A stretch of 64,000 nucleotides of DNA, from NCBI GenBank assembly GCA_041664165.1, contig JBAYLH010000002.1, positions 9,665 to 73,664 on the forward strand, written 5' to 3'. Positions 8,762 through 61,426 of the stretch are shown here, one piece after another. The notes beneath the pieces were generated by a model, which had not been told where the DNA came from, did no database searches, and saw nothing but the letters and a program-made list of their open reading frames with translations. Source of the DNA: Candidatus Buchananbacteria bacterium (GTDB lineage Bacteria > Patescibacteriota > Patescibacteriia > Buchananbacterales > UBA6539). The position numbers and the translations under genes were made by a program. Position 1 is the first letter of the stretch; each line of letters opens with the position of its first letter.

Positions 8762-9394
8762 ATGAATAAAGATGGACTGTTAGATCCGCAGACATCGGCT
8801 TTTGGAGGACGTTTACTAACATGCCTTCCTGCCATGCCCGGAGGAGTGGCGCAAGACTGGTTTGATTTTCCGGAGGGATTGCAGGAGTATCTGGCCGGGC
8901 TTGCTACGTCGCCATTTGTCGTCAGGGTTGACCGTTTGGTCAAACCTGTCTACCCGGATTGGGTGAAAGAGGTTCTCCATCCGGAATTGGAGAACACAGG
9001 TCCTGACGAATTCAATCTCAAAACGGATGTCGCGCTGTGGCTCCATGACGGACAGAAGAATGGCGATGTAGTCAACTCCAAATTTGTCTATTATCACCTG
9101 CGAGACAACGGCATGCTTCCTACGTGCCTGAATCTCCAAGACGGCGAAGCGATTCGGGGAAGAGGCATTGCCGTTTTCCGGAAGTTTTTTAGAGATAAAG
9201 AAGTCTTTCTCTGGAAGGCGGTTGTGCAGGATTGTCATGGCTTCATCCGCGTCCCGCATCTCCGTGAGGTCAGATCTCAGGTTGTGGTCGAATGGCGCAG
9301 ACTTGGTGCCGGTTGTTTCGGCGATAACTATCCGGCGGCTCGCTTCACGCTACAAGTAAATATACCCTTTAGACATAAGGGCTTGATCGCTTGA
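8762..9394 (+). CDS. orphan hypothetical protein, compositionally foreign (GC-rich, CTG/CTC/GGA codons)
   Basis: AAAGGAG SD 7 nt before ATG 8762; 210 aa; no recognised domain; codon usage unlike neighbours. Confidence 0.6.
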   Translation: MNKDGLLDPQTSAFGGRLLTCLPAMPGGVAQDWFDFPEGLQEYLAGLATSPFVVRVDRLVKPVYPDWVKEVLHPELENTGPDEFNLKTDVALWLHDGQKNGDVVNSKFVYYHLRDNGMLPTCLNLQDGEAIRGRGIAVFRKFFRDKEVFLWKAVVQDCHGFIRVPHLREVRSQVVVEWRRLGAGCFGDNYPAARFTLQVNIPFRHKGLIA

Positions 9395-9435
9395 GGCGAC
9401 CTTGGACTTGCATCTCATCGACTCGCGTTGGTTTC

Positions 9436-9462
9436 ATAGACTGGCGCGGGTCTATTTTTTTT
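9436..9462 (+). terminator. rho-independent terminator candidate
   Basis: ATAGAC-tggcgcgg-GTCTAT hairpin followed by T8. Confidence 0.5.
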
Positions 9463-9548
9463 ATGCAATTGGTTAAATTACTTTGCTTTTTAGCCAAGCC
9501 ACAATAAACCCAATTATTTGGCTTTTGTGGATAAGTTAGGCCAAATAT

Positions 9549-9577
9549 TTGACATTTTGTAAATGGTCATTTATACT
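9549..9577 (+). promoter_or_regulatory. sigma70-type promoter for greA
   Basis: TTGACA-17 nt-TATACT consensus match. Confidence 0.55.
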
Positions 9578-9680
9578 AAGTTTTAGCTTTTAGCGCCGGC
9601 CGCTATTTTTTTAATATCATTATCGGCAGCGGCAAACAAACATTTTTTTAATTTTTAAATCAAAGTATAAATCAAAACTT

Positions 9681-10139
9681 ATGGGCCGAAATTACATTAC
9701 CCAAAACGGCTTGGAAAAGCTGCGGGAAGAGCTGGAGTATCTAAAAAAGAAAAAAATGCCGGAAGTAATCGAAAGAATCGCCCGCGCCAAAGAGCTGGGT
9801 GATCTCTCGGAAAACGCCGAGTATCAAGATGCCAAAGACGAGCAGGGATTTATCGCCGGCCGGATTGTTGAATTGGAAAATTTAATCAACAAATCCGAAA
9901 TTATCAAAGAAAACGGCAGCAAGGAAATGGTAACGGTCGGTTCGACTATCAAAGTAAAATGTGAAGGTAATCATTATCAATATACGATTGTCGGTTCCAA
10001 TGAAGCGGATCCGACCAAAGGCTTGATTTCCAACGAATCGCCGCTGGGTCGGGCGTTTTTGACCAGAAAATTAGGCGACAAAATTCAAGTAATCGTGCCC
10101 AAAGGGGTAATGGAGTGTGAGATTTTGGAGATTGTCTAA
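9681..10139 (+). CDS. greA: transcription elongation factor GreA
   Basis: N-terminal coiled-coil, C-terminal FKBP-like domain; 152 aa. Confidence 0.9.
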   Translation: MGRNYITQNGLEKLREELEYLKKKKMPEVIERIARAKELGDLSENAEYQDAKDEQGFIAGRIVELENLINKSEIIKENGSKEMVTVGSTIKVKCEGNHYQYTIVGSNEADPTKGLISNESPLGRAFLTRKLGDKIQVIVPKGVMECEILEIV

Positions 10140-10396
10140 AAATCGCTAAAACGCTTCAATTTGTCATTCCGCACCGGTCTATTAATGACAGGCTGATGCG
10201 GAATCCAGAAGTCTTGCCATTAAACTTGATGACTCTCGGTTGGGACTGGGGTAGCTTTATTCGTCGTTCATGGCTATAACGCAATTAATTTTGCGTTTTT
10301 TTCATAATTATTAATTTGATGGCAACCCGACTCAGTCGGCTTAAACGTAAAGTCGGGCGACCAATTTATTGCTCCCAGACCCTGGTTGCGCATAAG

Positions 10397-10425
10397 TTGA
10401 CCAAAGCCCATAATTTTAGTAAAAT
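10397..10425 (+). promoter_or_regulatory. sigma70-type promoter for lysS
   Basis: TTGACC-17 nt-TAAAAT. Confidence 0.5.
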
Positions 10426-14768: not shown

Positions 14769-15902
14769 ATGAAAAGAATAATTTCAATTTTTACTTTAGC
14801 TATTGCAGTTAGCGCGATTATTGTTTTGAGTGCCGCTGAAACAAATGCCGCGACAAAATACGCGGATGGTGTGTTTATCAGGGCTGCTAGCGGAAAAATT
14901 TATTTAATTAAAGAGCAGAAGAAATTTTATATCAGTTCGCCGGCAGAGCTAGGGTTGTATGGCAAGATCAAATTGTACAATGTAAGTGACGGAGTAATTG
15001 ATAGCTTCGCCAACTATACAAGTTCGATAGTCGGTAATAATGCCAGATCATTTTTGAAAAGTCCAGATGGCAAAATTTATTTAGTTGAGAATCAAAAAAA
15101 GCGTCACATTACCACGCTGACAGAATTAAAATCATTTGGGTTTATTAAGCTTGTCAACGCAACTTATGAAACAATAAACGCTTATCCTGATCTGACGCAA
15201 TCGGATTATACAGACGGATCCCTGCTAAGACTTGATAGTGGAAAAATTTATCTATTAGATAATGGAAATGTTCGATATATTAGTTCCATTGCTGAATTGA
15301 AACAATTAGGGCTAAAAAAAATGTATAATGTCACGTTAGATGTCTTGAATAAATATCAAGTTAGTGTTTGCGATTCCGCCACTCACCGCGAAGGTAATGT
15401 CTGTGTTGCTGATTCTAAGCCGTGTTCAGTAGGTAATGGAGCCGGTTATCAAAATTGGAGCTCAGATGGGTGGTCTAATTGCGTGGCGAGTACTTGCAAC
15501 AGCGGATATCAGGTAAAAGACGGTTTGTGTGCCGCTAGTACATGTGATTCCGATAAGCATTTAGAAAATGGAATATGTAAGGATAATTATGAGGTCTGCA
15601 TAATTAGCAATGGAACAGGACATCGGATTTGGGATTTCATAAATTGGACCGGTTGCGAAGTTGATAGTTGCAATAGCGGCTATTATGAAAAAAATTTCTC
15701 ATGTGTTCCCAATGTATGCAGTTCAGATCAACATTTAGAAAACGGAGTCTGCGTAATTGATGTTACTCCCTGTACTGTCGCGAATGGATACGGTGTTAAA
15801 TCTTGGAGTGATACCGCTAATCAATGGAGTAGCTGTAATGCTTCTAGCTGTTTTAGCGGGTATAACCAGGTTCAGCAAAACGGCGTTTGGGTTTGTAGGT
15901 AA
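14769..15902 (+). CDS. secreted protein with N-terminal ~40-aa G-K-I-Y-L repeats and Cys-rich C-terminal repeats
   Basis: Signal peptide; three SGKIYLI...G repeats; repeated C..NSGY..C modules. Confidence 0.6.
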   Translation: MKRIISIFTLAIAVSAIIVLSAAETNAATKYADGVFIRAASGKIYLIKEQKKFYISSPAELGLYGKIKLYNVSDGVIDSFANYTSSIVGNNARSFLKSPDGKIYLVENQKKRHITTLTELKSFGFIKLVNATYETINAYPDLTQSDYTDGSLLRLDSGKIYLLDNGNVRYISSIAELKQLGLKKMYNVTLDVLNKYQVSVCDSATHREGNVCVADSKPCSVGNGAGYQNWSSDGWSNCVASTCNSGYQVKDGLCAASTCDSDKHLENGICKDNYEVCIISNGTGHRIWDFINWTGCEVDSCNSGYYEKNFSCVPNVCSSDQHLENGVCVIDVTPCTVANGYGVKSWSDTANQWSSCNASSCFSGYNQVQQNGVWVCR

Positions 15903-15922
15903 AAAAGCTTAATTAAGTTTAA

Positions 15923-17038
15923 ATGTATAATTCCTGGCTAGAAATATCCAAATCAGCGATTTTGCATAACTTAGCCCAATATCAGCGGATTGTCGGTAAA
16001 ACTGTTGAGATTATGCCGATTGTCAAAAGCAACGCCTATGGCCATGGTCTAGTTGAAGTAGCCAAAATTGTCAGTCCGAAAGTAAAATGGCTTGGTGTTG
16101 TCAGCCTGGGCGAAGCCTTAAATTTGCGGCAAAATGGCATTAAAAATAAGATTTTTGTTTTAAGTTACGCTCAAAGCCGCTATTTAGAACCAGGGATAAA
16201 ACAGAATATCGAACTGCCGGTTTATGATTTGGCTTATGCAAAATTAATATCGCAAAAGGCAGCGAGGCTGAGAAAAACTGCCTTGATTCACGTTAAAATT
16301 GATACGGGAGCTTCAAGAGTCGGAGTTTTAGCCGCTGACGCAATAGAGTTTATTCTAGAATTGGCTAAATTGCCGAATTTAAAAATTAACGGCATCTACA
16401 GCCATTTTGCCGCGGCCGAAGAAAATCAAAAATATTCAAAGTTTCAGTTGGACAAGTTTAATAAGATATTAGCAGAATTGAGTCGGTTTAAAATTTGCAT
16501 TCCTTATCGGCATTTTGTTTGTAGTGCGGCGACTTTAACTGAAGACAAAGCTTATTTTAATCTAATTCGTTTAGGTTTAGGTCTTTATGGCTTATGGCCT
16601 TCAAAGCAGACCCAAAAAATCGCTCAAAAAAAGTATCCTTGGTTAAAATTAATTCCGGCGCTGGCTTGGAAAACCAAAGTAATTCAGGTTAAGGAAGTTC
16701 CGGCTGGCACTTACGTGGGATATGGTTGTACCTTTAAGACTAAAAAGAAAACTAAATTAGCCGTTTTAGCGGTTGGCTATTGGGAAGGCTATGACCGGCA
16801 TTTGTCTAATATTGGCGAAGTGATAATTAAAAATAAAAAATGCCCGGTTATCGGGCGAGTCTGTATGAACTTGACGATGGTTGATGTTAGTTTAGTTAAA
16901 GATGTCAAAGCCGACGATGAGGTAACGCTTTTAGGTGGGGGAGTAACAGCTGACGAATTGGCAGATAAAATTGGCACAATTAATTACGAAGTCGTGACCA
17001 GGGTTAATCCGCTTTTACCGAGATTTTATCTAAAATAA
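15923..17038 (+). CDS. alr: alanine racemase
   Basis: PLP-binding VKSNAYGHG motif near N-terminus. Confidence 0.85.
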   Translation: MYNSWLEISKSAILHNLAQYQRIVGKTVEIMPIVKSNAYGHGLVEVAKIVSPKVKWLGVVSLGEALNLRQNGIKNKIFVLSYAQSRYLEPGIKQNIELPVYDLAYAKLISQKAARLRKTALIHVKIDTGASRVGVLAADAIEFILELAKLPNLKINGIYSHFAAAEENQKYSKFQLDKFNKILAELSRFKICIPYRHFVCSAATLTEDKAYFNLIRLGLGLYGLWPSKQTQKIAQKKYPWLKLIPALAWKTKVIQVKEVPAGTYVGYGCTFKTKKKTKLAVLAVGYWEGYDRHLSNIGEVIIKNKKCPVIGRVCMNLTMVDVSLVKDVKADDEVTLLGGGVTADELADKIGTINYEVVTRVNPLLPRFYLK

Positions 17039-31773: not shown

Positions 31774-31796
31774 ATTAGAAATTATTAATTATAAAT

Positions 31797-33909: not shown

Positions 33910-33962
33910 AAAAAAAAGACCTTGGCCGCCGGTCTTCTCGTTTGAGAGCCAGTGGCCAAGGT
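33910..33962 (-). terminator. rho-independent terminator (minus strand) after GC-rich gene
   Basis: On minus strand AGACCGGCGGCCAAGGTCT hairpin then T8. Confidence 0.5.
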
Positions 33963-44698: not shown

Positions 44699-45098
44699 TT
44701 ACGGTGCCAGTCATTGAAGGATGAAGTCGGCAGTGATAGTTAATCGTTTCTTTGTCGTTGAATTTAATCTTGGCGGTTTTGCCGGGATCAATATCGCCGG
44801 TATCAATCCGGTTATCAATCGTAACCGCATGGGCAGTCTGGTCGGAATTAGTCCATTGAACCGTATCGCCGGCGTTGATTTCAATTGTTTGCGGCTGAAA
44901 GGAAAAATTAGTGATATTAACTTCAACTTGCTTCGGCGCGATATTGGTATTGGCGTTTGCATTTCCTGCCGGCGTATTGGTATTGGCTGCGGGCGGCGTT
45001 GCGACTGAGCCGCAGCCGGCCAGCAGCAATGGGATAGACGCGACGGTGAGCAAGATTTTGATTTTTTTCATAAGTTTATAATTGTTATTTACAGACAT
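44688..45098 (-). CDS. cupredoxin (plastocyanin/amicyanin-like blue copper) lipoprotein
   Basis: Lipobox LLAGC; type-1 Cu ligands H...C-x2-H-x4-M (HAV...HCRLHPSM). Confidence 0.75.
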   Translation of the reverse strand: MSVNNNYKLMKKIKILLTVASIPLLLAGCGSVATPPAANTNTPAGNANANTNIAPKQVEVNITNFSFQPQTIEINAGDTVQWTNSDQTAHAVTIDNRIDTGDIDPGKTAKIKFNDKETINYHCRLHPSMTGTVIVK

Positions 45099-45692: not shown

Positions 45693-46706
45693 TTATTTAT
45701 TTTCCCTTAATTCTCCGGCTAATTGCCCGCAAGCGCCTTTAATATCGCTGCCGAATTTGTACCGCTGAAAAACCGTCACTCCGGCTTTCTCTAAAGTCAT
45801 TTTAAACTCTTTTATCGTTTTCGGCAAAGAGCCTTGAAACCTTTCAGTTTGGTTATAAGCAATCAAATTGACAAAATAAAGATGAGGCAGATATTTTTTT
45901 AAAATCAAAGCCAGTTCTTTGGCCTGTGCCGGTGAATCGTTGATGCCTTTTAACATCACGTATTCAATCATTAATTTGCGCTTGGTTTTTTTAAGGTATT
46001 CACCGGCCGCGGTTAAAACTTCGCTTAGCGGATATTTTTGGTTAATCGGCATTAAGCGCGAACGCAAAGTGTCGCTTGGCGAATGAATTGAAATGGCTAA
46101 GTTAATCTGCAAGGGGAAATCCGCTAATTTTTTTATCCCCTCGGTAATGCCGACGGTGGAAACCGAAATATGCCTGGCGCCGATACTGAATTTAGTCTGG
46201 TCATTAATAATTTTTATCGCTTTAGCTACCTCGTCAAAGTTTAAAAGCGGTTCGCCCATGCCCATAAAGACAATATTAGAAACTTTTTGGTTTTCCGGCT
46301 TCAAAAGCCTTTCAAAAACAAGCACCTGTTCGCAAATTTCATCAGCCGTTAAATTGCGCTTAAAGCCCAGCTGGCCGGTGGCGCAAAAATCGCAAGCCAA
46401 AGCGCAGCCAACTTGGCAAGAAACGCAAACCGTGTTGCGCGTGCCATGGCGCATTAAAACCGTTTCCGTGATTTCGCCGTCAGCTAAAGTGATCGCCGCT
46501 TTAATCGTGCTATTATCTGCCGATTTAAAAATTTTAGTTTTAATTTCCAAAGAACATTCTTTTTTTAAAAGATCGCGCAAGTCTTTGGGCAGGCTGCTGG
46601 CTTCATCCCAGGTCTCAATGAACTGGCTAAAAATCGCCTCGTTGATTTGTTTAAGGCGAAATTTCGGCTGCCGCTTTAAAATGTCTTCTAACTTTGTCAG
46701 GTTCAT
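45693..46706 (-). CDS. rlmN: 23S rRNA/tRNA m2A methyltransferase (radical SAM)
   Basis: CALACDFCATG radical-SAM cluster; family-typical length. Confidence 0.85.
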   Translation of the reverse strand: MNLTKLEDILKRQPKFRLKQINEAIFSQFIETWDEASSLPKDLRDLLKKECSLEIKTKIFKSADNSTIKAAITLADGEITETVLMRHGTRNTVCVSCQVGCALACDFCATGQLGFKRNLTADEICEQVLVFERLLKPENQKVSNIVFMGMGEPLLNFDEVAKAIKIINDQTKFSIGARHISVSTVGITEGIKKLADFPLQINLAISIHSPSDTLRSRLMPINQKYPLSEVLTAAGEYLKKTKRKLMIEYVMLKGINDSPAQAKELALILKKYLPHLYFVNLIAYNQTERFQGSLPKTIKEFKMTLEKAGVTVFQRYKFGSDIKGACGQLAGELRENK

Positions 46707-48042: not shown

Positions 48043-49173
48043 TTATTGCAGCTCCGTCAGGCTGGTATAATCCAGACAAGCTTTTTTTTCGGTTTGATCG
48101 GTTAAATTGGCGCAGACATTTTTGTCGCGGGCGGTAACGGCGACATTATGAATGCATTTATCGCGAGTGCCGGTCTTTTCCGATTTTTCGCAGACGGCGG
48201 CATCGCGAGTAACGTTGGCAACGCTATAAAGGCAGGAGTAATTATTTTCCGCCTCTTTGAGATAGGCGCAAGGTTCGGCGCTTTTTTTGGCCGTCGCAAT
48301 TGAAGTAAAGCAATAAGTTTTTTGGCCTTGGTCGGCAATTGACTGGCAAAGTCCGGTGTCTTGCTTGGCCATCGCCACTGATTGATAGCAGCTGTCCTTT
48401 TGGCCCTGGTTTTCTATTTGGGTGCAGCTATTTTCGTCATTGTGCTTAGTTCCGACTAAATAATAGCATTGCTGCCTTTGGCTTGAGTCCTGGATTTTGC
48501 CGCAAAGCAAATTGCCGCCGATTTCCGAGGCCACGTTGGAAAGGCAGACATCTTTTATTTTTTGGTCAGTAATCTGATCGCAGAGCTTTTCATCTTTTCG
48601 GCTGGTGGCTAGCGAAGTATAACAATTTTGCTGCATTTCTATTTTGTCGATTTGCCCGCAAAGAGCCGGGTCGTTTTTTTTGATGATTATATTGTTATAG
48701 CAATCGGTTTGATAATAAGTTTCCGTAATCTGATCGCAAAGCTTGATGTCGCCTTTGGCCTGGGCAATTTGCGAAACGCATTGGCCGGCCGTGGTTTTAT
48801 TGCTAATGCCGACGCAAAGCGATGCGTCCTGTTTTTTGACGGCTAAGCCGCTGAAACAAAGGTCTTTGTATTGGTCTTGATTAATCCGGTCGCATAAAGC
48901 CTGATTATCGCTGGCCACGGCCACTTTTGAAAAGCAATTATTTTTGGTTGATTCGTCTTTAATTTCATCGCAGAGTTTTTCATTTTTTGCCGCTTCGGTG
49001 ACGCCGGCTAAGCAGCGTTCCCGGCGGCCGACTTCATCCATTTTCCGGCAGATTTTTGGATTCTTTTTGGCGATGGCGGTATTCATTTCCGAATCTAAAA
49101 AATCAAAAATTCCGCAGCCGGTTAAAATCACGGCGAGGCCGAATATCAGAGTGACCAATGAAATTTTTTTCAT
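48043..49173 (-). CDS. lipoprotein with ~12 Cys-containing ~28-aa repeats
   Basis: Lipobox ILTGC; repeated ..C..I.D......CY..VA.......C modules. Confidence 0.5.
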   Translation of the reverse strand: MKKISLVTLIFGLAVILTGCGIFDFLDSEMNTAIAKKNPKICRKMDEVGRRERCLAGVTEAAKNEKLCDEIKDESTKNNCFSKVAVASDNQALCDRINQDQYKDLCFSGLAVKKQDASLCVGISNKTTAGQCVSQIAQAKGDIKLCDQITETYYQTDCYNNIIIKKNDPALCGQIDKIEMQQNCYTSLATSRKDEKLCDQITDQKIKDVCLSNVASEIGGNLLCGKIQDSSQRQQCYYLVGTKHNDENSCTQIENQGQKDSCYQSVAMAKQDTGLCQSIADQGQKTYCFTSIATAKKSAEPCAYLKEAENNYSCLYSVANVTRDAAVCEKSEKTGTRDKCIHNVAVTARDKNVCANLTDQTEKKACLDYTSLTELQ

Positions 49174-49643: not shown

Positions 49644-49656
49644 ATAGTTTTTCATC

Positions 49657-49819
49657 GTCATTTCGACCGAAGTGAGAAATCCCTTATACATCGATTGACC
49701 CTTTGTCATTCCGAACGAAGTGAATAATCCCTTATACTCGGATTAACCGTCTAACATTTTAAAAGGGATTTCTCACCCCGCCTCTCGGATACGCCTGAAG
49801 CGGGGTTCAAAATGACAAA
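49657..49819. mobile_element. MITE-like repeat copy 1 (TIR TTGTCATTTCGA-type)
   Basis: ~150 nt nearly identical to 50470-50618; internal 33-nt subrepeats GTCATTYCGAMCGAAGTGARAAATCCCTTATAC; ends ...GTTCAAAATGACAAA. Confidence 0.55.
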
Positions 49820-49820
49820 A

Positions 49821-50105
49821 TCAGTTTGGTTTAAACCTCTCAACGTAAACTAGCCGCCACCAAACTCGACCCAAAAGAAAGCCGCCGATAGCGCCAAATA
49901 GCCAAAGCCCGATTTGGATTATCGGTAAAAGCGCACAGCCATGATAAAAAGTAACGGCTATCCCTTGTTTTTCTGTCCAGCCCAAATAGTTGATTTCAAT
50001 TAAAGCGTGGATAATAAAGCTTAGCAGGATGCCTAAAATTGTAGCAGCAATAAGATAAACCGCATGTTTAAATTTGGTTGGATTTTTTGGTGATCCAAAA
50101 AACAT
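49821..50105 (-). CDS. small membrane protein
   Basis: 94 aa, 2-3 TM; between MITE copies. Confidence 0.4.
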   Translation of the reverse strand: MFFGSPKNPTKFKHAVYLIAATILGILLSFIIHALIEINYLGWTEKQGIAVTFYHGCALLPIIQIGLWLFGAIGGFLLGRVWWRLVYVERFKPN

Positions 50106-50119
50106 ATTATTGCTAAAAT

Positions 50120-50416
50120 TTAAAATAATTCTTCATAGAGGTCTTTCCAGTGAGGATTGATTGTTTTAATTAAGTTTTGTTTTTTCTCTCGCCGCCACTT
50201 CTTTATTTCCTTTTCCCTTTCGATGGCGTCATAGACATAATCATAATTTTCGTAATAAACCAATTTGTTGCAGGAGTATTTTTTGGTGAAACCTTTGATT
50301 TCCCCTTGTTTATGTTCATTAACTCGGCGCAACAAATCATTAGTCATGCCAATATACAAAGTGCCGCTTGGGCTAGCCATGATGTAAATATAAAAATTGT
50401 ATTCTCTTTTTGGCAT
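50120..50416 (-). CDS. GIY-YIG nuclease family protein
   Basis: YIYIMASPSGTLYIGMTNDLLRRVNEH GIY-YIG core. Confidence 0.85.
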   Translation of the reverse strand: MPKREYNFYIYIMASPSGTLYIGMTNDLLRRVNEHKQGEIKGFTKKYSCNKLVYYENYDYVYDAIEREKEIKKWRREKKQNLIKTINPHWKDLYEELF

Positions 50417-50434
50417 AGACTTTCTTTTTTTAGT

Positions 50435-50618
50435 TTGTCATTTCGACCGACCTGTCTATTAGAGGAAAGGAGGGAGAAATCCCTTATACATCGACTGACC
50501 TTTTGTCATTCCGAACAGAGTGAAAAATCCCTTATACTCGGATTAACCGTCTAACATTTTAAAAGGGATTTCTCACCCCGCCTCTCGGATACGCCTGAAG
50601 CGGGGTTCGAAATGACAA
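50435..50618. mobile_element. MITE-like repeat copy 2 with 12-bp terminal inverted repeats
   Basis: TTGTCATTTCGAcc ... ggTTCGAAATGACAA; a third partial GTCATTCCGACC...AATCCCTTATACTC copy lies at ~50646-50690. Confidence 0.55.
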
Positions 50619-50691
50619 AGATAGACCCCTCGTTATTTTTCGTCATTCCGACCGCCGGGAGGAATCCCTTATACTCTGATTGATGAAAGCA

Positions 50692-51330: not shown

Positions 51331-51933
51331 CTATTCTAGTAGTTTGTTTCTCAGAATCTCTTCTCTTTTTTCTAATTCATCATAAAAAGGCTTAACATTT
51401 TCTTCTGAGTGGCCAATTTTGTGTGCTATTTCACCGGTAATACCTTTTTTTTCAACTCTATTCCAAACCTCAACAAATTCTACGAGCTTGGCGTAGTGTT
51501 CTCTAGTCTCAGGTTCAGCAAGCCAATAATTATTTCGAAAAATTTTTAGCATTTGATTATAAAGTGGTAGGAATTCTTCTATTAATTGTTTATTATTGTA
51601 GTCAATCTCGTAATCAACAGATTTAATGTCTGGGAATTGACCTGCGTCGCATTTTTTTTCCCATATCTTAGTACCAACTCTTTCAATTTTTACTCTTACT
51701 TCACTTTTTGTACGGATTTCTTTTCGGATACCCAGAAGTGGTGAGTAGAATTTGTTGAGTTGTTCCTCAGTTACATTGTGTTTCTTTTGTGCTTTGTATA
51801 ATTTAATACCATAAGTTACGCCTAAGTAGCCAAATAATGCTGGTGCAATAATGGCAACTATATCTTTTATGAAGGATAAGGTAGTAAAATTTGGTATTTG
51901 AGACGGGTTATGCATAGGGTTATAAAATTTCAC
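51331..51933 (-). CDS. membrane-anchored hypothetical protein in AT-rich R-M island
   Basis: One N-terminal TM, charged helical cytoplasmic domain; AT-rich codon usage matching R-M genes. Confidence 0.45.
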   Translation of the reverse strand: MKFYNPMHNPSQIPNFTTLSFIKDIVAIIAPALFGYLGVTYGIKLYKAQKKHNVTEEQLNKFYSPLLGIRKEIRTKSEVRVKIERVGTKIWEKKCDAGQFPDIKSVDYEIDYNNKQLIEEFLPLYNQMLKIFRNNYWLAEPETREHYAKLVEFVEVWNRVEKKGITGEIAHKIGHSEENVKPFYDELEKREEILRNKLLE

Positions 51934-51989
51934 ACAACTTATTTTATCCGAACCAGCTAATTATCTATTCTAAATTCTCGCAATATTAT

Positions 51990-53240
51990 TTATGTCGCGA
52001 ACGCAAATAGCTGTTGTTGCAGGCGTGTAGACTCTTCAATTTCTTCCTTAGCTTCGCCATTTAGCATTTTAATTACCATATCACCAATATAATATCCAAG
52101 ATTTACAGGCACGGCATTTCCTATTTGCTTGTATTGTTGGGAAACGGATCCTGAAAATTTCCAATTATCTGGGAATGTCTGAATTCGTGCATATTCGCGT
52201 ACTGTTAAGGGGCGCGTTTCTTCCGGATGACAACGCTCAGTCTGTTTTTGGGCTGGGCTGCAAGTTAATGTTAAAGATGGTTCGTCCCATGATAATCGTC
52301 TTGCCATGCCAGTCTTGCCGCCACCCATAAAATAGCTAGCCCCCATGTACTCTTTTTGAAGATTTTCTGGGAGATCTCTCCAATATCCACCCGGAGGAAT
52401 TAAGTCCAATATTTCTTTCTTTTTTTCCGGGTATTGCTGCCCTTCTGATTTTGGGCATTTTAAAAGTGCTTCGCGTATGGGGATTATGTAGTCTTTTTCT
52501 TTGGGGAATGAAATAGGGATATCTAGGTCTTTTCTAACGCCGATAATTATTAAGCGTTCTCTTTTTTGCGGGATATCTAAATATTGGGATCGTAAAATTT
52601 TGTATTTGACCCTATATCCGAGTTCCTCTAATACGCTAATCATCGTTTTAATCGTTTTTCCGTTATTATGATTCAACAAGCCCTTAACATTTTCTCCGAT
52701 TGCAATTTTTGGCTTAACTTCCTTGACACATCTCGCAAATTCAAAAAATAAAGTTCCCCTTATATCTTCAAACCCCATTTTATTCCCAGCATAAGAAAAA
52801 GCTTGACAAGGAAAACCACCTTGTACTATATCTGCTTGTCCCTTAAAGAATTTAAGTTTCCCAACATCACCTTCAACCACGTTCCAGTCTGGTTTATTCG
52901 TTCGAAGCGTTTCGCAGGCATGCTTATCATATTCATTCAGTAGAATATGTTTAATTCCCGCATTTTCCATTCCAAGGGCAGTACCACCAGCGCCGGCAAA
53001 TAGCTCAATCGCCGTATACGGAGACATTTTATTATTTTTTAGAATTTTGAATTTGTTTTTTTTATCGCCGCTTGTTCTGCTTTGAATCCTTTCGATTTCA
53101 TCTAGGCAAAACATACGATCATTTCTTTCGTTTCGAAAAGCTTTTATCAATCCTTTTTTATCCCATCTCCTAATAGTATCTATAGAAGTGCCTAATTTTA
53201 TAGCCACTTCGCCAGCGGTAAAAAATTTGTCATTTTTCAT
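51990..53240 (-). CDS. dcm: DNA (cytosine-5)-methyltransferase with N-terminal MerR-like HTH
   Basis: Motif I ELFAGAGG, motif IV GFPCQAFS, ENV, motif X QIGNAVPV; N-terminal HTH (FTAGEVAIKLGTSIDTIRRWDKKG). Confidence 0.9.
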   Translation of the reverse strand: MKNDKFFTAGEVAIKLGTSIDTIRRWDKKGLIKAFRNERNDRMFCLDEIERIQSRTSGDKKNKFKILKNNKMSPYTAIELFAGAGGTALGMENAGIKHILLNEYDKHACETLRTNKPDWNVVEGDVGKLKFFKGQADIVQGGFPCQAFSYAGNKMGFEDIRGTLFFEFARCVKEVKPKIAIGENVKGLLNHNNGKTIKTMISVLEELGYRVKYKILRSQYLDIPQKRERLIIIGVRKDLDIPISFPKEKDYIIPIREALLKCPKSEGQQYPEKKKEILDLIPPGGYWRDLPENLQKEYMGASYFMGGGKTGMARRLSWDEPSLTLTCSPAQKQTERCHPEETRPLTVREYARIQTFPDNWKFSGSVSQQYKQIGNAVPVNLGYYIGDMVIKMLNGEAKEEIEESTRLQQQLFAFAT

Positions 53241-53301
53241 AAAAAATGATAGGTAATTAATCTATCATAATTATATCATATAACCATTGCCTAGGCAAAG
53301 G

Positions 53302-54009
53302 TTATTTTGTGGCAAAAGCCAATTTAAATAGCTCAAAATACTTTTGAGCTTCTTTTTTGCTTAATTTAAACTTATATTTATCTACCAGAATATGGGATAG
53401 TGCCTCGAATAGCTCTTGCAGGGCGTGCTTTCGACCAGTAGCTAGAGCATAAAAGCTGATGCCGTCAACCACCCGGATATTTTTAACATTCGGCCGTCGT
53501 TTTTTAGTTTTATTATCCGGTGGCGTAAAAGGTTTATCATACATATTCTTTCCCTGTGGTATGATTTCCACATAGTATCCGATAAAATCATTATATTTTT
53601 CGGTTTTAAGCTTAGATTTTATGGCATCATAGATTTCAACCTTATGATTGCCCTTTGTCGTATTAAATTTATTTTTTACTTCAGCAATAATTTTCATACT
53701 ATCGCTTGCAACATCCAACCCTCCGCCCGCGCCAAGGTTTTTCCAGCCAGGAATAGCCCCTAAAATTTCTTGATGAAAATCGCCGATAGCATTTTGCATT
53801 GTTTTTTGCGATTGCCTGGCTTTTTCTTGTTCAATCCATTCTTTGTAGGTTATAGCATGTGTTACGCCATGAAATAAGGCAGAAAAAGGGTCAATAACAT
53901 TTTTATGCAGATTATTGCCTGCTTCATGCTCCGCTGTTTCTATTATTTTAACCACCCTGCCAACGGCAAAAATTAGATTTTTATCGGATATAAATTTTAA
54001 GTAAGACAT
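53302..54009 (-). CDS. candidate Type II restriction endonuclease (PD-(D/E)xK)
   Basis: Adjacent to and co-oriented with m5C MTase; GLDVAS...IAEVKNK resembles PD-(D/E)xK core. Confidence 0.5.
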   Translation of the reverse strand: MSYLKFISDKNLIFAVGRVVKIIETAEHEAGNNLHKNVIDPFSALFHGVTHAITYKEWIEQEKARQSQKTMQNAIGDFHQEILGAIPGWKNLGAGGGLDVASDSMKIIAEVKNKFNTTKGNHKVEIYDAIKSKLKTEKYNDFIGYYVEIIPQGKNMYDKPFTPPDNKTKKRRPNVKNIRVVDGISFYALATGRKHALQELFEALSHILVDKYKFKLSKKEAQKYFELFKLAFATK

Positions 54010-54190: not shown

Positions 54191-55417
54191 CTATGCCCCG
54201 CCTGCCTCCAATTTCTGGCGAAAGCTTTTGAATAACTGCGGCCCAATGTTCAGTTGAAGCGGAATGAACCCAACTTCGGTATGAATGGTGTGCATCGAGG
54301 CCACAATTCCGCCCGAATCGCTTTTGCCGCGAAGCACTGAGGTCATCTCGGTGGGTTCGACCGGAGATTTCCCGGCCGCTTGGGGCTTCATATCGGATTC
54401 TGCCGTATCCAGGTCTCGGACGATCAGGGAGATAAAACCGCGGCAATCGCGGCAGGCCTGGTTGCTTGGGTCAAGCTCCAGCCCTTTGTTCAGGTCGCTG
54501 ATGCTTTTGCCCCAGTTGCCAAGCGCGGCATTGAGCACACCGCTGGTCATCCATGAAGCGGCTGAACGGTCAGGTTTGGCTTCAACCTTTTGCAGTTCTT
54601 CTTTGAGGAGTTTGCGGTTGAATACATAACTCATCATCTCCACATCCTGGTAGCAGTGCGGCCACCAGTGCTGGTTTTCCGAGCGGCCAACGAGGGCTTC
54701 GATGCTTTTTTCGTCAAAGCCACCGGACCATTCCTTGGGCGCAGCCGTGGCACCGGATAAAGGCTCGCCTTTGACCCGATCGCCGGTCAAGCGATAAATC
54801 TCGCCAGTCTGCGCGTCCACCGCCGGCGTGTATTCCGGATTAGCCATGATCCAGCTGCCACCCGCCCAGACCGGACGGATCCCGCGACCCGTAACGTTGA
54901 TGGTCATCAGCCAACCGCCTTGGTTGCGAATCAAGCTTTCGCCGCCCTGATCCAAGACGATTTTGTGAGCCTCGAGGTTGTCCACGACGAACTCTTCGAG
55001 CTTAATCGGTCCGGGGTACATCTTGCTCATGTCGTCGGTTTTTTTGGTGAGTTTGATTTCGCCCCAGCAGTTGATTCGGGCTTCGTACGTGGCGCCGGAC
55101 GTATTCTGGAAGTAAAACACCCAGCCGCCCACGACCCAGCTCAACTCCTGAGTCTCTCGGTTTTGGTACACCGCGGATCGCTCGGGTATGGCGTTCCAGA
55201 GTTTGGCGATTGGGGCTTGATCCTGGCGCTTGAGTTGGATTTCCAGCCGGCCGAGCGCCTGCTTGGCAGTGTACTGTGTCAGTTCGCGGGTTTCTTCCTT
55301 TTCTTGGACGGTCGGCTTGGGGGTAGCCGCAGCAGGACTTGGTGTATTCGAAGTGCTTTGATTACACCCGGCTGCGGTCAGAAGTAGCACAATGGCAAGC
55401 GCAATAATCTTTTTCAT
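54191..55417 (-). CDS. lipoprotein, hypothetical, GC-rich foreign composition
   Basis: Lipobox LLTAAGC; 408 aa; CTG/GAG/CGG-rich codon usage. Confidence 0.55.
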   Translation of the reverse strand: MKKIIALAIVLLLTAAGCNQSTSNTPSPAAATPKPTVQEKEETRELTQYTAKQALGRLEIQLKRQDQAPIAKLWNAIPERSAVYQNRETQELSWVVGGWVFYFQNTSGATYEARINCWGEIKLTKKTDDMSKMYPGPIKLEEFVVDNLEAHKIVLDQGGESLIRNQGGWLMTINVTGRGIRPVWAGGSWIMANPEYTPAVDAQTGEIYRLTGDRVKGEPLSGATAAPKEWSGGFDEKSIEALVGRSENQHWWPHCYQDVEMMSYVFNRKLLKEELQKVEAKPDRSAASWMTSGVLNAALGNWGKSISDLNKGLELDPSNQACRDCRGFISLIVRDLDTAESDMKPQAAGKSPVEPTEMTSVLRGKSDSGGIVASMHTIHTEVGFIPLQLNIGPQLFKSFRQKLEAGGA

Positions 55418-56603: not shown

Positions 56604-57212
56604 TTATTTCTTTTTTGTTTTAGCCTTTTTTGCCGGCTTAGCGATCGTTTTTTTCTTAGCCGTAACTTTAACCGGCTTAGCTTCTTTTGGTGCCGAGACG
56701 GCAGCGGCCGGGACTAAGACTTTGAGGATTTTATCTAATTTGGAGTTCAAAATTTCAAGCTGCTGCCTGACTGAATCGGCCGCTTTTTCCGCCGGCTTGC
56801 TGTCTTTGCCAAAGCACTGGCTGCAGTAAACCGGTTTATCGCCGGTTGGCCGGAAAGGCACTTCGCATTTTTGGCCGCATTTGTCGCAAACAGCGCTAAA
56901 CATCCGTTTTTTTTCAAAGCTCGGCTTTTGGAAATCCCGGCCTTGGGGTCGGCTTGAAGCGGAACTTGAACTGCTGTGTTTACCAAAACACTGGCTGCAA
57001 TAAACCGGCCGGTCGCCGGTGGGTCGAAATGGCACTTCGCATTTTTGGCCGCAGTCGCTGCAGACAGTTTGGTGCATTCCTGGCCGGGAGCCGGCATTAT
57101 CATTAAAATCCCGCTTTTTGCCCCATTTGTCTCCTCTTGATCCGCCATGATTGCTTCTATCAAAATTTTTCATAAGGTTTTTAGTTAATAATTTACTTCT
57201 TAAGTCTCTCAC
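56604..57212 (-). CDS. tandem CxxC zinc-ribbon protein with Lys-rich C-terminal tail
   Basis: Duplicated C..CGQKCEVPFRPTGD.PVYCSQCFGK module; tail KVTAKKKTIAKPAKKAKTKKK. Confidence 0.55.
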   Translation of the reverse strand: MRDLRSKLLTKNLMKNFDRSNHGGSRGDKWGKKRDFNDNAGSRPGMHQTVCSDCGQKCEVPFRPTGDRPVYCSQCFGKHSSSSSASSRPQGRDFQKPSFEKKRMFSAVCDKCGQKCEVPFRPTGDKPVYCSQCFGKDSKPAEKAADSVRQQLEILNSKLDKILKVLVPAAAVSAPKEAKPVKVTAKKKTIAKPAKKAKTKKK

Positions 57213-57317: not shown

Positions 57318-59243
57318 TTACCAGCCACCTCCGCCGCCGCCTCCCCCGCCCCCGCCGGAACCGCCACCGCCAAAGCCGGAACTTGAACCGGGAGCATTGG
57401 CGGAAGAACTGACGGCACTAGCAAAAGCGCCGCCCAAAGACCCGGCAAAAGTACCAATATTAGCCGGGTTAAAGCCGGTGCCGCTATACCAGACCGGTAC
57501 ATAAGCCTGACCTTTTTCAGCGAGTTTGGCAAAAATTTCGTTAAACTGCTCGGCCCATTGGTTTTCCACGTCTAAGGCCAAAGCATAAGGTAGATATTTT
57601 TCGAAAAGCTCGGGAGTTTTCTGTGGCGGATTATGAAAATTCAGCCGGTCTTTTTCCGTTACCGTTAAAAACCATTTGAAGCCGGCAATCTGGCCCAGGA
57701 GTTTTTGGCCAGCCACTGTCGGCGCTTTGATTAAACGATAGAAGATATAATTTATCGCAATTAATAAAAGAATAATAATGACGCTGGCTCGGGGGGCAAT
57801 TTCTAAAAGCATCATAATGGCGATTATTTCAAAAAAGAAAAATAAGCCAAAGGCAAAAGTTGAACCGATTGCCCGAAAGACTGCTATGATGCCGTTTGAG
57901 GCTTGCTTCCAATTTTGAATAGCTTGAACTAACAGAGATAATATGCCTAAAGTCCAGCCGGTCAACCAGACTACTAAAAAGATAACCGGCGTTTCGGTGT
58001 TTGAAAGCGAGCTGGTCGCCAATATAATAATACCGATTGTTAGCAGCAGGCCAATTAAGAAAAAACGGATGTTAGTGACAAAATATACTTTTTGATATTT
58101 GTCTTTAAGCAGCTTGTTTAGCAATTTGGTCGCGTCGCCAATTTTTTTATAATTGGTGTTTTTCAGTTCGATTTCGTGGAGGGTCGGAAAAAGGCTTTTA
58201 ATTATCATGGCTGCTTCGTCATCAGGTTTGGTTTTATCGGCTTGATTATAAATGAGAGTGTAGTTGCCGTTTTTTTTAATTTGTATAACGCCTTTAACTG
58301 CCAAATTAATAATATTAGCGGTTAGGCCTTTTTTGTCATAGCCCATTTTTTTTATATAGCGCAAAGCCGCTGGCGAAAAACCGGCCGGCGGTTCGTATTC
58401 GGGAATGATCGTGCCGGCTTTGGGGTCTTTGCCGACGGCGATCCAGGCAATCAGGTAATATAAAAAAACGACAATTAGGCCGATTAAGCCGATAATGGTA
58501 ATGGCATTATCCTGCCAAAAATATTGCCGCTTTTGTTCGGCGGTTGGCGGCGCGATGAAACCTTTCGGCCAGCCGACGACAATAGTTAAACCTTCGTTAG
58601 CCTTAAGGGACTGAGTGGTAGTAAAAGTGACTAGGTTATTATTAATTTGGGCGGTGAAGTTTTTATCCTTGGCGCCCTGAAGGCCGGTATAGCCGTCAGT
58701 TTTGATTTGGTCGGCTGTGATGGCATCAGGCAAAATTACGGTGGCTGAAGCTTTTAGAATTGGAAAGACCCAGCCGTTACCCGTGACATTCCAGTATAAT
58801 TCGTCATGATCATTGAAAAATCCTAGTTCGCGGTTGACCCGGTAAGTTAACTGGTAAGTGTAAGTTCCCGGCGGTAATTCGTAATCGCTTTTTCCGAGGT
58901 AGATGCGGATGCCGTTTTTGAGGCTGCCGTAATGATAGCTTTCCGGTTGGCCATCGCGCGTGACGGAAATTAGGTCAAAACCAATTTTGGTTTTAGCCAG
59001 GCCGTTATCGTAAATTGTTGGAAAATCGCGGTAAATACCGCGCTTAATTTCGATGCCAAGACTGTCAACGACAATGGTTTCAGTAACTAGTAAAGTCGAA
59101 TCTGGATTAACTTTAATCTGACTGTCAAGGCTATCGATTTTTTCTTGAGTTGCCGTCGCGGCCAAAGCGGGCGTTAGCAAAAATAAAAAAGCTAAAATAC
59201 AAAAAAAAGATATCTTAGCCAAGCGGCTGGGTTTAATTTTCAT
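57318..59243 (-). CDS. DUF2207-family membrane protein with poly-Gly C-terminus
   Basis: Signal peptide, large extracytoplasmic domain, TM cluster, C-terminal [21 protein letters not shown]. Confidence 0.7.
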
Positions 59244-59293
59244 ATCATTAGAAATCTACCCGTTACCCTGCTCTTTTTAGAGCGGGATTAGAT

Positions 59294-59599
59294 TTATTTT
59301 TTCTTTAAACCGAAGAAACCGAAAAAACCATAAAAGCCGTAAAAGCCGGGAGTAATTAGCCCCAGCAGTCCGAAAAGGCCGAGCCAGCCGAGCTGCCAAA
59401 TATCTCTAGGCTGGCCTTTGAAAAAATAAGTAAAGACATTGTAAATGACGGCTAAAATAAAGCTTAAAAACATCAGAATTGTCAGGGTGAAAAAAACCGG
59501 TTCTTCCACGTCAAAAATAACGGAAAAAATATTGTGCAGTATGGCTGAAAAAATAGCCAAACCCATGAGCCAAAATGGCAATCGCATTTGGTATTGCAT
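59294..59599 (-). CDS. small membrane protein
   Basis: 101 aa, 3 TM, upstream of DUF2207 gene. Confidence 0.45.
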   Translation of the reverse strand: MQYQMRLPFWLMGLAIFSAILHNIFSVIFDVEEPVFFTLTILMFLSFILAVIYNVFTYFFKGQPRDIWQLGWLGLFGLLGLITPGFYGFYGFFGFFGLKKK

Positions 59600-59635
59600 A
59601 AAAAAACCTCCGGCTAAATTTTTAAATATAATAAA

Positions 59636-59953
59636 TTATTTTTTTTCCCAAAATTTTTCGCCGGCTTCTTCCATTGCCTCGAGCCGGGTATAATAGTCCG
59701 GTAATTCGTTGAGATGAGCTAAGGCAATTTTGCCCGTGGCCAGCGGATCGTCATCGGTAACGTTGGTATCGGGGTTAACCGTGCCATGTTCAAGCTCGAC
59801 ATCCAATCCCATTCGGAATTGTTCAACGTCGAATTTAGACCAGTTGATGCCGATTTTTTCGCCGACTGCCTTGGCTTGTTCCGGAGTAAAATGTTTTTCG
59901 GTTGACATAGGTTTTATTAGTTTAATTATCTCATTTTTAGTTCTTAGTGTCAA
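59636..59953 (-). CDS. hypothetical protein with ELEHG motif
   Basis: 105 aa; LDVELEHG motif; no secure assignment. Confidence 0.4.
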   Translation of the reverse strand: MTLRTKNEIIKLIKPMSTEKHFTPEQAKAVGEKIGINWSKFDVEQFRMGLDVELEHGTVNPDTNVTDDDPLATGKIALAHLNELPDYYTRLEAMEEAGEKFWEKK

Positions 59954-60018
59954 AAAAAAGACTCCTTGGTTCGGCTATTGCCAAATCAAGGAGTGTGATT
60001 TTTTTGGTTTTCGACTCT

Positions 60019-60744
60019 TTATTCCTGGATGGTGATGCCAACTGTTTGAGTGACAACCAAATTTTCTGAGTCGGAAAGAACGAGAGTAATCGCGGTCTGG
60101 CCGACATTGCCGGCAGCTTTGATTGTCATGACATCGCCGTCAAAGCTGATGTCAGCGATCAGGGAACTGTCAATATTTTCGGCCGACCAAATGAGCCGGT
60201 CGCCGCTGTCAAAGTCGTCGGTTTTGTTGCCGGATAAATCAACCGAAGTTCCGGCCAAATCCATGATAAGATCAGTCACCGTCGACTTCGTTTCTGGCGG
60301 CCAGTTAATATATCCCGGTCCCCTGGTAACTTGATAGAAGGCCACGGCTTCCGGAATTTGGGGCAGATTGGCCGCGTTATTGCAGATCGGCGCCTTAACG
60401 CCGTTGGGCAACAGAAAGGCGGCAAACGCGGTGGCGTTTTGATCGGTGCCGCCGGTTACGATGTTGCAGATCCAATTGCCACCCGGGCCAATGAAGGTTA
60501 ACGGTTTGTCCCAAGTTGGCTTATTGAACCAGCCAGCTCCGGGACCAATGCGCAGATAAACTGCGACTTTGTATCCAAACGGGTTAACCCCGCTTACCGA
60601 GCCAGTCAGGTTGGTATCCAGCAGCGCACCGTACGGCGGCACGTGACTGAACCAAATCTTTGGCGGGCCTTCAGTGGCTGGCGGACAGCCGAAAAGGCCA
60701 ATAACGATTAGCAGAAACAGCAATGATTTCCAAGTGTTTCTCAT
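60019..60744 (-). CDS. lipoprotein, hypothetical, GC-rich composition
   Basis: Lipobox LFGC; 241 aa. Confidence 0.5.
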   Translation of the reverse strand: MRNTWKSLLFLLIVIGLFGCPPATEGPPKIWFSHVPPYGALLDTNLTGSVSGVNPFGYKVAVYLRIGPGAGWFNKPTWDKPLTFIGPGGNWICNIVTGGTDQNATAFAAFLLPNGVKAPICNNAANLPQIPEAVAFYQVTRGPGYINWPPETKSTVTDLIMDLAGTSVDLSGNKTDDFDSGDRLIWSAENIDSSLIADISFDGDVMTIKAAGNVGQTAITLVLSDSENLVVTQTVGITIQE

Positions 60745-60784
60745 GACCGATACTCCTTTGTTGCGTTGTTGTGTTTTTTAGTTT

Positions 60785-61426
60785 TCAAAGGGAACTTCCC
60801 TTTTTTGAATCGTCGGGACCAACTAACCACTGTTGGGGTTCATTTGTCCTTTTTGGATCCCAGCTGGTCCAATACCAGCCCTGGCCAGGTTCATTCAAAG
60901 GATCGGTTGCCACTACTTTCCATCCGCTGGCTAGGCGATTGGTTAAGGTTCCCCAACCGGGGATGTTACTAGTAGCATCTTCGGCTTCGACGCAAAAAGC
61001 GCCAGTGCCGCAAGCGGCTTTCATTGCGTGTATTAGTCTGCAGCCCTTGGTAATCGCTGCCAAAAATCCGGCAATCGTCGTATCGCCTGCCCCGGTTGTG
61101 CCTTTGACTTCAGCTTGCAGGCACGGCATGATGATTTCCCGGTTGGCCCAGTCATCACGTAAGTTTGGAGCAATGAAACTTAGTTGCTCTTTTGGACCGG
61201 TGCGGACATACAAACCGTCCGTGCCGCATTTGATGGCGACAATTCCTGGCCCCATTGCCAGCAGACTTTTGGCTATCAGACTAAGGAGTTCACCCATTGT
61301 TGGTGGTCCGACTTGCAGTAATTTGCCGGGCTGAATTAGATCGCCTGATCTAATTTCCTGGATAATATCGAGGCAAAGGTGCCCCGCCACCACAACTTCA
61401 GTTCTATCTGCGATTTCTTCGTCCAT
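60785..61426 (-). pseudogene. PfkB-family sugar kinase remnant (N- and C-terminal motifs only ~100 aa apart)
   Basis: VVVAGHLCLDII and TTGAGDTTIAGF motifs present but lid/central region missing; GC-rich. Confidence 0.4.

Follow-up and report, generated by a model that had tools for sequence, protein, structure and literature searches.

GC-rich, mostly cell-surface genes in a Candidatus Buchananbacteria genome and their counterparts in related contigs

Compositional outliers in the window

The window analyzed here comprises 64,000 nucleotides of contig JBAYLH010000002.1 (assembly GCA_041664165.1), from a metagenome-assembled genome (MAG) of Candidatus Buchananbacteria (Patescibacteria) for which a second, nearly identical MAG, representing a second strain, exists. 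The window has a GC content of 0.431, and its 72 working gene calls have a median GC content at third codon positions (GC3) of 0.474, with a standard deviation, based on the median absolute deviation, of 0.052. An initial annotation had singled out five GC-rich patches, most of them encoding secreted proteins or lipoproteins. We found that five genes in four of these patches, named here by their first coordinate, deviate in GC3 (34020, 41262, 43000, 54191, and 60019), whereas the gene at 8762 to 9394 and the PfkB remnant beside 60019 do not (Table 1). No tRNA or tmRNA genes and no Rfam families were detected in the window, no repeats flank any of the islands, and no integrase is encoded among the genes neighboring them.

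Table 1. Compositional outliers of the window and associated features. z is the robust GC3 score against the window genes; corrected z also accounts for a gene's own amino acid sequence and next-codon context.
Coordinates	Strand	Feature	GC	GC3	z	Corrected z
34020–34481	−	Secreted Ala/Thr-rich protein, 153 aa, N-terminal signal sequence; strongest GC outlier	0.61	0.766	5.7	4.8
41262–42692	−	Lipoprotein, 471–476 aa, lipobox ...AALMNLGC-PPP	0.541	0.644	3.3	4.4
43000–43665	+	Cytoplasmic protein, 221 aa, small DUF5701-like family; divergent from lipoprotein gene	0.547	0.617	2.8	2.4
54191–55417	−	Lipoprotein, 408 aa, lipobox LLLTAAGC; N-terminal beta-rich domains and three tetratricopeptide (TPR) repeats	0.562	0.670	3.8	5.1
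60019–60744	−	Lipoprotein, 241 aa, lipobox ...VIGLFGC-PP; ~115-aa module	0.526	0.603	2.5	2.0
60785–61426	−	PfkB-family sugar kinase remnant, 213 aa, C-terminal third of domain only; not a codon outlier		0.481	0.1	
8762–9394	+	ORFan, 210 aa, between PBP2 and GreA genes, without signal peptide; not a codon outlier (GC1 0.627)	0.512	0.526	1.0	−0.7
33910–33962	−	Terminator-like hairpin after 34020, ACCTTGGCC...GGCCAAGGT then T8; read from sequence				
34482–35057	−	Long upstream region of 34020; two promoter-like sites, 34950–34922 and 34677–34650				
51331–54009	−	AT-rich restriction-modification (RM) module, directly downstream of 54191		0.26–0.32		

After correction, 34020, 41262, and 54191 are robust outliers, and 43000 and 60019 are marginal. 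Amino acid content together with next-codon context accounts for the ORFan and the PfkB remnant, and largely for 43000 and 60019, but fails for the three robust outliers, for which it predicts GC3 values of 0.55 to 0.59 against the 0.64 to 0.76 observed. The raised GC of the ORFan and the PfkB remnant is located in codon positions 1 and 2 (mainly position 1 in the ORFan), and the dinucleotide signature is atypical in these two genes too. For the five outliers, the dinucleotide distance exceeds that of ~96% or more of size-matched backbone segments, and for four of the five that of ~99% or more.

The patches had been described as using CTG, GAG, and CGG codons within a backbone favoring AAA, TTT, and TTA. 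Codon counts bore out the backbone preference and part of the island pattern: CTG, which takes the place of TTA in the islands, makes up 0.40 of their leucine codons versus 0.17 in the backbone, and the fraction of codons ending in C (NNC) is 0.53 to 0.72 versus 0.26 to 0.48, the islands differing at two-fold sites. CGG, however, is not raised (CGC is), and at four-fold sites islands and backbone use the same codons, namely, GCC, GGC, CCG, and ACC (backbone fractions of 0.46, 0.60, 0.52, and 0.42, respectively, with a four-fold GC of ~0.66). The two-fold families of the backbone end in A or T (AAA 0.83, GAA 0.80, TTT 0.76). Codon usage of the backbone is thus unusually split, with four-fold families ending in G/C and two-fold families in A/T. 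Backbone GC3 is 0.33 if the next codon opens with two A/T and 0.66 if it opens with two G/C, and AA/TT and GC dinucleotides are ~1.5-fold over-represented. Amino acids of four-fold families occupy 0.47 to 0.61 of island codons versus 0.36 to 0.49 in sampled backbone genes, so that the low end overlaps.

A secretion signal, either a signal peptide or a lipobox, is present in four of the five outliers versus 9 of the 67 other genes (Fisher P = 0.003; the other genes were scored with a crude rule based on hydrophobicity). The link between GC-richness and secretion, already proposed in the initial annotation, is therefore real. Other lipoprotein genes of the backbone (44688 to 45098 and 48043 to 49173) lack the GC3 bias. 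Ribosomal-protein genes (S9, L13, L17, and S4) and the RpoA gene are backbone-like, with NNC fractions of 0.26 to 0.48 and CTG shares of leucine codons of 0 to 0.33 (0.24 to 0.65 in the islands), which argues against the idea that the islands are merely highly expressed genes.

Counterparts of the GC-rich genes in related contigs

We compared the islands with contigs from other assemblies, referred to as relatives (L007, which is GCA_041643025.1, L009, L091, L095, L096, L100, L102, L104, L106, L108, and L174 to L176). The window, L007, and L009 have in common a gene series that runs from a flippase gene through GT4 and GT2 glycosyltransferase, NUDIX, pseudouridine synthase, and second GT2 genes to a small ORF (open reading frame) and a Wzy gene, and eight flanking genes keep the same order in the window and L007, with 60 to 75% protein identity. 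The 41262 product, whose likely start is the Met at 42677, carries an InlB B-repeat (PF18998) followed by a BNR-like region (PF15892), probably a beta-propeller. Its two best homologues, in L007 (47% identity) and L009 (44%), are likewise GC-rich and adjacent to the flippase gene; in L007, with a backbone GC of 0.40, the lipoprotein genes by the flippase have GC3 values of 0.52 to 0.57, and the flanking genes have values of ~0.31 to 0.52. No flippase-side lipoprotein is present in L091 or L102. Identities of the flippase and the GT4 enzyme give the tree (window,(L007,(L009,(L091,L102)))), and since the lipoprotein occurs in the window, L007, and L009 only, it is best read as ancestral and lost once. 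The beta-propeller family otherwise occurs in non-CPR (candidate phyla radiation) or GC-rich genomes, and for this family a foreign origin in a much older sense is plausible.

The neighboring 43000 gene is truncated at its 5' end, and ~47 N-terminal residues present in the rest of the family are missing from its product. A search of 5.8 billion clustered proteins gave only four homologues (46 to 55% identity), of which one is named Ca. Buchananbacteria. The gene is GC-rich (GC3 0.62 to 0.76) in three different AT-rich contigs, among them L174 (0.756), where three further GC-rich secreted-protein genes precede it, and L176 (0.695); L175, from the sample that also yielded the window genome (ERZ27249449), represents the same locus as L174. 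The product itself has no Pfam match at an E value of ≤0.01, and of the homologues P0286 and P0288, which carry precomputed PF18959 matches, the match of P0288 is flagged as faint. We therefore use the label "DUF5701-like" only. The predicted structure of the product is poor (model confidence [pLDDT] of 36).

The 34020 gene, the strongest outlier, occupies the small-ORF slot of the glycan cluster, between a GT2 glycosyltransferase gene (35058 to 35846) and a gene of the Wzy_C/O-antigen ligase family (32329 to 33834), and its product has no match in Pfam, NCBIfam, PHROGs, or the sequences of the PDB. The same slot holds a 154-aa ORF in L007 (L007:19442-19906; GC 0.60, GC3 0.768) and an Ala/Thr-rich secreted ORF that begins at L091:20128 (GC 0.59, GC3 0.70). 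All three agree in orientation, Shine-Dalgarno site, signal peptide, and composition (GC 0.59 to 0.61), and the two complete proteins, at 153 and 154 aa, are nearly equal in length. The leader of 34020 carries a GGAGGTGATCC motif, complementary to the 3' end of 16S rRNA, and a related motif, GGTGATCC, occurs in the leaders of the other two genes (L007:19106-19441 and L091:19703-20127). The 34020 leader also contains a possible 18-aa upstream ORF and, just ahead of the Shine-Dalgarno site, a hairpin whose pairing appears to be kept despite the substitutions that separate the window from L091. Alignment of the three leaders is poor, and no Rfam family was found for that of 34020. Although several of the patches had been credited with terminators of their own, clear ones follow 54191 and 34020 only; the hairpin behind 34020 is absent from a consensus terminator scan because its loop is longer than 8 nt.

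Oligosaccharyltransferases of the PglL/PilO type carry a Wzy_C domain and modify Ser/Thr residues in Ala/Pro/Ser-rich low-complexity segments. The window offers a similar arrangement, with an Ala/Thr-rich secreted protein whose gene immediately precedes that of a Wzy_C-family membrane protein in a glycosyltransferase cluster and with slot proteins conserved in composition alone and not in sequence. It differs in that pilin features are lacking and in that the Wzy_C match is weak (27.9 bits, under the 31.7-bit cutoff). The 34020 product may be a surface protein that becomes glycosylated, with the neighboring Wzy_C-family protein as the candidate enzyme.

Directly after rpsI (S9), orthologues of 60019 were found in L106, L108, and L096 at 51 to 52% identity. 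In L106 and L108 (51%) the orthologue has a native GC3 of 0.416. The ~115-aa module of the 60019 product recurs in the lipoproteins L007:11299-13566 and L174:2-1300, and the "GC-P" lipobox pattern recurs in orthologues of the island lipoproteins. The PfkB remnant next to 60019 had been called decayed, and its Pfam match (PF00294, 45.6 bits) indeed covers only model positions 212 to 300 of 302; all its NCBIfam matches are far below their cutoffs. In L095, a full-length 390-aa PfkB-like gene follows S9, with a GC3 of 0.614 versus 0.414 for S9.

The 54191 gene forms a monocistronic unit between terminator-like sites at 54155 to 54129 (a hairpin with a 12-bp stem and a T-run) and 55583 to 55567. 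In the AlphaFold model of its product (pLDDT 82.7), only the TPR part matches solved structures, with an additional weak similarity to the putative lipoprotein 4exr (Z 8.9). Among 1.8 billion representative proteins, 15 homologues reached an E value of <1e-30, the best at 43% identity. All five homologue contigs that we read (L171, L172/L173, L177, and L090) have a GC of 0.53 to 0.60 and look non-CPR by composition and gene content. The GC of the homologue is close to that of its contig, or somewhat below it, in L171, L172/L173, and L177. In L090 (contig GC 0.56, GC3 ~0.70), the homologue and two upstream genes (L090:8935-11212) form an AT-rich island with GC3 values of 0.36 to 0.44, mirroring the situation in the window, and such an AT-rich island in a GC-rich contig indicates that the family moves between distant genomes. 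The L171 homologue (L171:4702-7845; 39% identity; contig GC 0.60) has an integrase fragment nearby and, ~1.2 kb away, a 35% match over 279 aa to a domain of the L007:11299-13566 lipoprotein, which makes L171 a lead to a possible donor-type lineage. None of 80 related loci has a 54191 homologue within 10 kb of S9, as would be expected if relatives lacked the gene, although gene order there is poorly conserved. A separate import across phyla is the best reading for 54191, the one good candidate among the islands.

GC-rich genes were also seen elsewhere in the relatives. Three conserved GC-rich small genes precede infA in L091:2746-6014 and L102:2502-5836, two of which lie in the alaS-infA interval, and that interval in L104 holds another GC-rich small gene, different from these (L104:5881-6114); the GC3 values of these genes are 0.53 to 0.68. 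Because two of the three genes shared by L091 and L102 lack signal peptides, the GC-rich class is not confined to secreted proteins.

Origin and persistence of the GC-rich genes

We consider it moderately likely that the GC-rich patches are resident, clade-shared accessory genes, mostly for cell-surface proteins, which either were GC-rich before the species split or have been swapped within the clade, and that they are not recent captures from a host. The pool in the window would consist of three lipoproteins, one small secreted Ala/Thr-rich protein, and one DUF5701-like protein, encoded beside the cell-envelope glycan cluster and downstream of the rpsI ribosomal-protein cluster. These genes would have been GC-rich and in place before the sampled species diverged, or they would have been exchanged via recombination in conserved flanks, and the ultimate origin of the pool would probably be foreign. 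The 54191 gene would have been imported separately, across phyla, into a variable region that also holds the foreign-looking RM module. The lipoproteins with a B-repeat and propeller, with TPR repeats, and with the repeat module may be surface-displayed binding or adhesion proteins.

Variable surface loci such as O-antigen and capsule loci or the surface lipoproteins of mycoplasmas are swapped by recombination in conserved flanks. Like these, the genes described here are part of, or next to, a polysaccharide cluster (flippase, GT4, GT2, and Wzy-like genes), have modular lipoprotein architectures, and encode proteins that outpace their neighbors in divergence (nonsynonymous divergence [dN] of 0.35 to 0.53 versus 0.16 to 0.29). 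Unlike them, they show no phase-variation repeats, no multigene arrays in the window, and no variation between the two strains, and their hallmark is composition rather than repeat-driven switching. Genomic islands and transferred genes in Patescibacteria (PMC12455944) offer a second comparison, resembling our set in being atypical accessory genes of a streamlined genome, with relatives mostly in Patescibacteria and mostly not recent. Atypical composition was found for the five genes, but mobility genes, tRNA targets, and flanking repeats were not, and the genes are mostly single ones in fixed syntenic slots, those at 34020, 41262, and 60019 having counterparts at the corresponding loci of relatives. 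Closest homologues are distant for 54191 (43% at best) and not so for 41262, 43000, and 60019. In several species, the genes described here have also retained their aberrant, GC-rich codon choice and have not drifted to host composition. Most transfers detected in Patescibacteria come from other Patescibacteria (PMC12455944).

Divergence estimates bear on how long this composition has lasted. By the Nei-Gojobori method (NG86), synonymous divergence (dS) of backbone genes among the window, L007, and L009 is ~1.5 to 4 and thus saturated, with dN values of 0.16 to 0.29; the island lipoprotein has dN values of 0.51 to 0.53. DUF5701-like pairs and the L007-L009 lipoprotein pair combine a dS of 0.7 to 1.1 with a dN equal to or above that of backbone genes, although NG86 is biased under skewed codon usage and underestimates dS. 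These low-dS pairs fit exchange within the clade after speciation or constraint at synonymous sites, and they are indicative only.

Several points weigh against a long-resident, clade-shared set. The mature slot proteins are no more alike than shuffled sequences, with no detectable similarity among the three, and the orthology of the slot genes is drawn solely from position, length, orientation, signal peptide, and composition. Domains are the sole pointer to surface and adhesion roles, and the taxonomy of the related metagenome contigs is taken from synteny and one source name. Acquired genes are said to drift to host composition, the amelioration idea of Lawrence and Ochman. Given the saturation at synonymous sites of the backbone, one ancient acquisition should have done so, and by a rough two-state estimate the GC3 excess of the 34020 slot is too large for a passive relic. 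Simple vertical inheritance alone leaves the GC-rich composition unaccounted for; with a saturated backbone, GC-richness could persist only through exchange within the clade or under an active GC-favoring force. We put forward only tentatively that surface genes are held GC-rich (GC3 of 0.6 to 0.77 versus backbones of 0.31 to 0.47) beyond synonymous saturation, by an active force or by refilling from a hidden reservoir. A set held in this way would include the positionally fixed Ala/Thr-rich secreted protein of the glycan cluster, ~153 aa long where complete.

An alternative that we regard as rather unlikely is that the slots are old and their copies young, the same slots being refilled repeatedly, via conserved flanks, from a hidden GC-rich reservoir such as GC-richer Patescibacteria, an unrecognized mobile element, or the host. 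Slot proteins that cannot be aligned and yet have the same size and composition would be expected from such refilling, and so would the DUF5701-like and L007-L009 lipoprotein pairs, with their dS of 0.7 to 1.1 (backbone 1.5 to 5) at higher or equal dN, a signal tempered by the bias of NG86 under skewed codon usage. The pooled GC-rich genes of the window and its relatives share a common codon usage (distance of 54 between them) that lies between CPR backbones (107 to that of the window) and the three contigs of GC 0.56 to 0.60, L171, L172, and L090 (73 to 83). L171, moreover, holds homologues of two island families within ~1.2 kb, and GC-richer relatives exist, for example, L100 (GC3 0.57). Against refilling, no integrase, tRNA, or flanking repeat marks any island, no relatives turned up among 2.9 million viral contigs, no candidate source exceeds 55% identity, and the 60019 orthologue of L106 is natively AT-rich.

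Slightly less probable still, in our view, is that no transfer took place and that the composition results from the amino acids of secreted proteins (Ala, Thr, Gly, and Pro), the tendency of G/C to stand next to G/C, and an active GC-favoring force. That force might be GC-biased gene conversion among surface genes that recombine often, or else selection acting on the mRNA or at synonymous positions. At four-fold sites the preferred codons of islands and backbone are exactly the same, the islands are rich in four-fold-family amino acids (with overlap at the lower values), backbone GC3 itself ranges from 0.33 to 0.66 with the next codon, and GC-richness is conserved across species despite saturated dS. 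However, amino acids and context leave the three strongest genes unexplained, the bias is missing from ribosomal-protein genes and from the other lipoprotein genes of the backbone, and the 54191 and beta-propeller families otherwise occur in genomes that are GC-rich or non-CPR. Bacteria have been proposed to undergo GC-biased gene conversion (PMC4450053), which likewise raises GC3 in a subset of genes of an AT-leaning genome; the effect seen here is far larger (+0.13 to +0.29 GC3), is limited to a handful of genes, and comes with no recombination signal. Across 31 kb, 34 clustered single-nucleotide polymorphisms (SNPs) separate the two strains; the five outlier genes are free of them and the PfkB remnant has one, so that there is no sign of short-timescale hypervariability or unusually frequent recombination in the islands.

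The initial annotation had favored several recent, independent acquisitions in which the donor had a higher GC content, the host of an episymbiont being one possibility, and this we now judge improbable. Composition, codon usage, and dinucleotide signature are indeed unlike those of the backbone, and for 54191, whose homologues sit in GC-rich contigs in every case read and which lies in a variable region beside a foreign-looking RM module, a foreign donor is plausible. Yet four of the five outliers have homologues or positional counterparts in relatives with 60 to 75% backbone identity, three of these four being GC-rich there, and for 34020, 41262, 43000, and 60019, recent capture is contradicted by the syntenic relatives: the best matches of 41262, 43000, and 60019 are in related Buchananbacteria, and the 34020 slot is equally GC-rich in L007 and L091. 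For most islands, then, the best homologues lie in close relatives, the very observation named at the outset as one that would speak against a host donor. The homologue searches allow no donor or host to be named, the best nonrelative matches reaching ≤43% identity among 1.8 to 5.8 billion proteins, and no recent donor is visible.

A chimeric assembly or binning error, suggested by the compositional contrast alone, can be dismissed, as independent contigs (SRR18595301 and SRR6484324; Logan assemblies) cross both borders of 34020 and 54191 (L002, L003, and L005 at 100% identity to the window and L006 at 99.94%), Joint Genome Institute (JGI) 3300037810 contigs cover all islands at 99.8 to 99.97% identity, and equivalent island-backbone junctions are present in related species.

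Two further candidates were tried and rejected. A phage origin of the islands is unsupported: scans of the 2.9 million viral contigs for relatives of the DUF5701-like family, the 54191 family, the 8762-to-9394 ORFan, and 34020 and a search of PHROGs were both empty. A diversity-generating retroelement was rejected since no repeat touches an island gene and the islands are identical in both strains.

On the preferred reading of a resident, clade-shared set, a class of genes for surface proteins stably shares the deviant composition across this clade, and composition-based island calling would mislabel these genes as recent transfers; the tempting inference of a host is unsafe here. If the stability is real, the genes are a concrete case of base composition held off genomic equilibrium in tiny streamlined genomes. 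Islands and mainly intraphylum transfers are already known from Patescibacteria (PMC12455944), and what is unusual here is the conserved deviant composition. The short list of surface lipoproteins, with one possibly glycosylated secreted protein, provides candidates for cell-cell contact in an uncultured lineage.

Neighboring genes and further features of the window

The RM module downstream of 54191 looks foreign. It comprises an Eco47II-type endonuclease gene (53302 to 54009), a MerR-fused C5 methyltransferase gene (51990 to 53240), and a 200-aa gene of unknown function; the methyltransferase and endonuclease genes have a four-fold GC of 0.37 to 0.42 versus ~0.66 in the backbone, the kind of difference that AT-rich DNA of truly foreign origin should show. 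With its low GC3, the module deviates in the direction opposite to that of the islands, as do the genes at 14769 to 17038 (+), a secreted 377-aa ORFan (GC3 0.33, four-fold GC 0.38) and an adjoining alanine racemase gene (GC3 0.37). The D-Ala-D-Ala ligase gene that follows this pair has a normal composition.

Nearby, two 149-nt direct repeats that are 95% identical (49671 to 49819 and 50471 to 50619) bracket a GIY-YIG nuclease gene (50120 to 50416) and a 94-aa ORF. The region, 49647 to 50683, also contains four copies of a 52-nt element (GTCATTCCGA...AATCCCTTATAC) and may be a small mobile or homing element. Upstream of 54191, the treble-clef zinc-finger gene at 56604 to 57212 (−; two PF23477 matches) has an internal 96-nt direct repeat (56798 to 57067, 82% identity), its zinc-finger domain being duplicated in tandem. 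The DUF2207 membrane-protein gene at 57318 to 59243 (−) has native composition. Its best matches in species-representative genomes are from Desulfobacteraceae, Pseudomonadota, and Bacteroidetes at 41 to 45% identity, the Patescibacteria copies matching at 26 to 34%, and a DUF2207-anchored scan of the genome collection found no Buchananbacteria loci; the gene may have been transferred long enough ago for its composition to have become that of the host.

The ORFan at 8762 to 9394, one of the patches first proposed, was called as a gene in two assemblies and has no match to families (Pfam, NCBIfam, and PHROGs), structures, or viral contigs. The SNPs between the two strains form clusters, for example, at 46518 to 46695 and 31800 to 31914, which suggests recombination tracts. 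The second strain also has an extra 163-aa NUDIX gene (L004:12687-13190) between the histidine-phosphatase and formyltransferase genes, absent from the window at ~31796 to 31807. Finally, an 8-nt tandem repeat (GTTNGTAA, ~10 copies) at 29104 to 29183 stands right after the LigB/Memo-like gene at 28310 to 29107.

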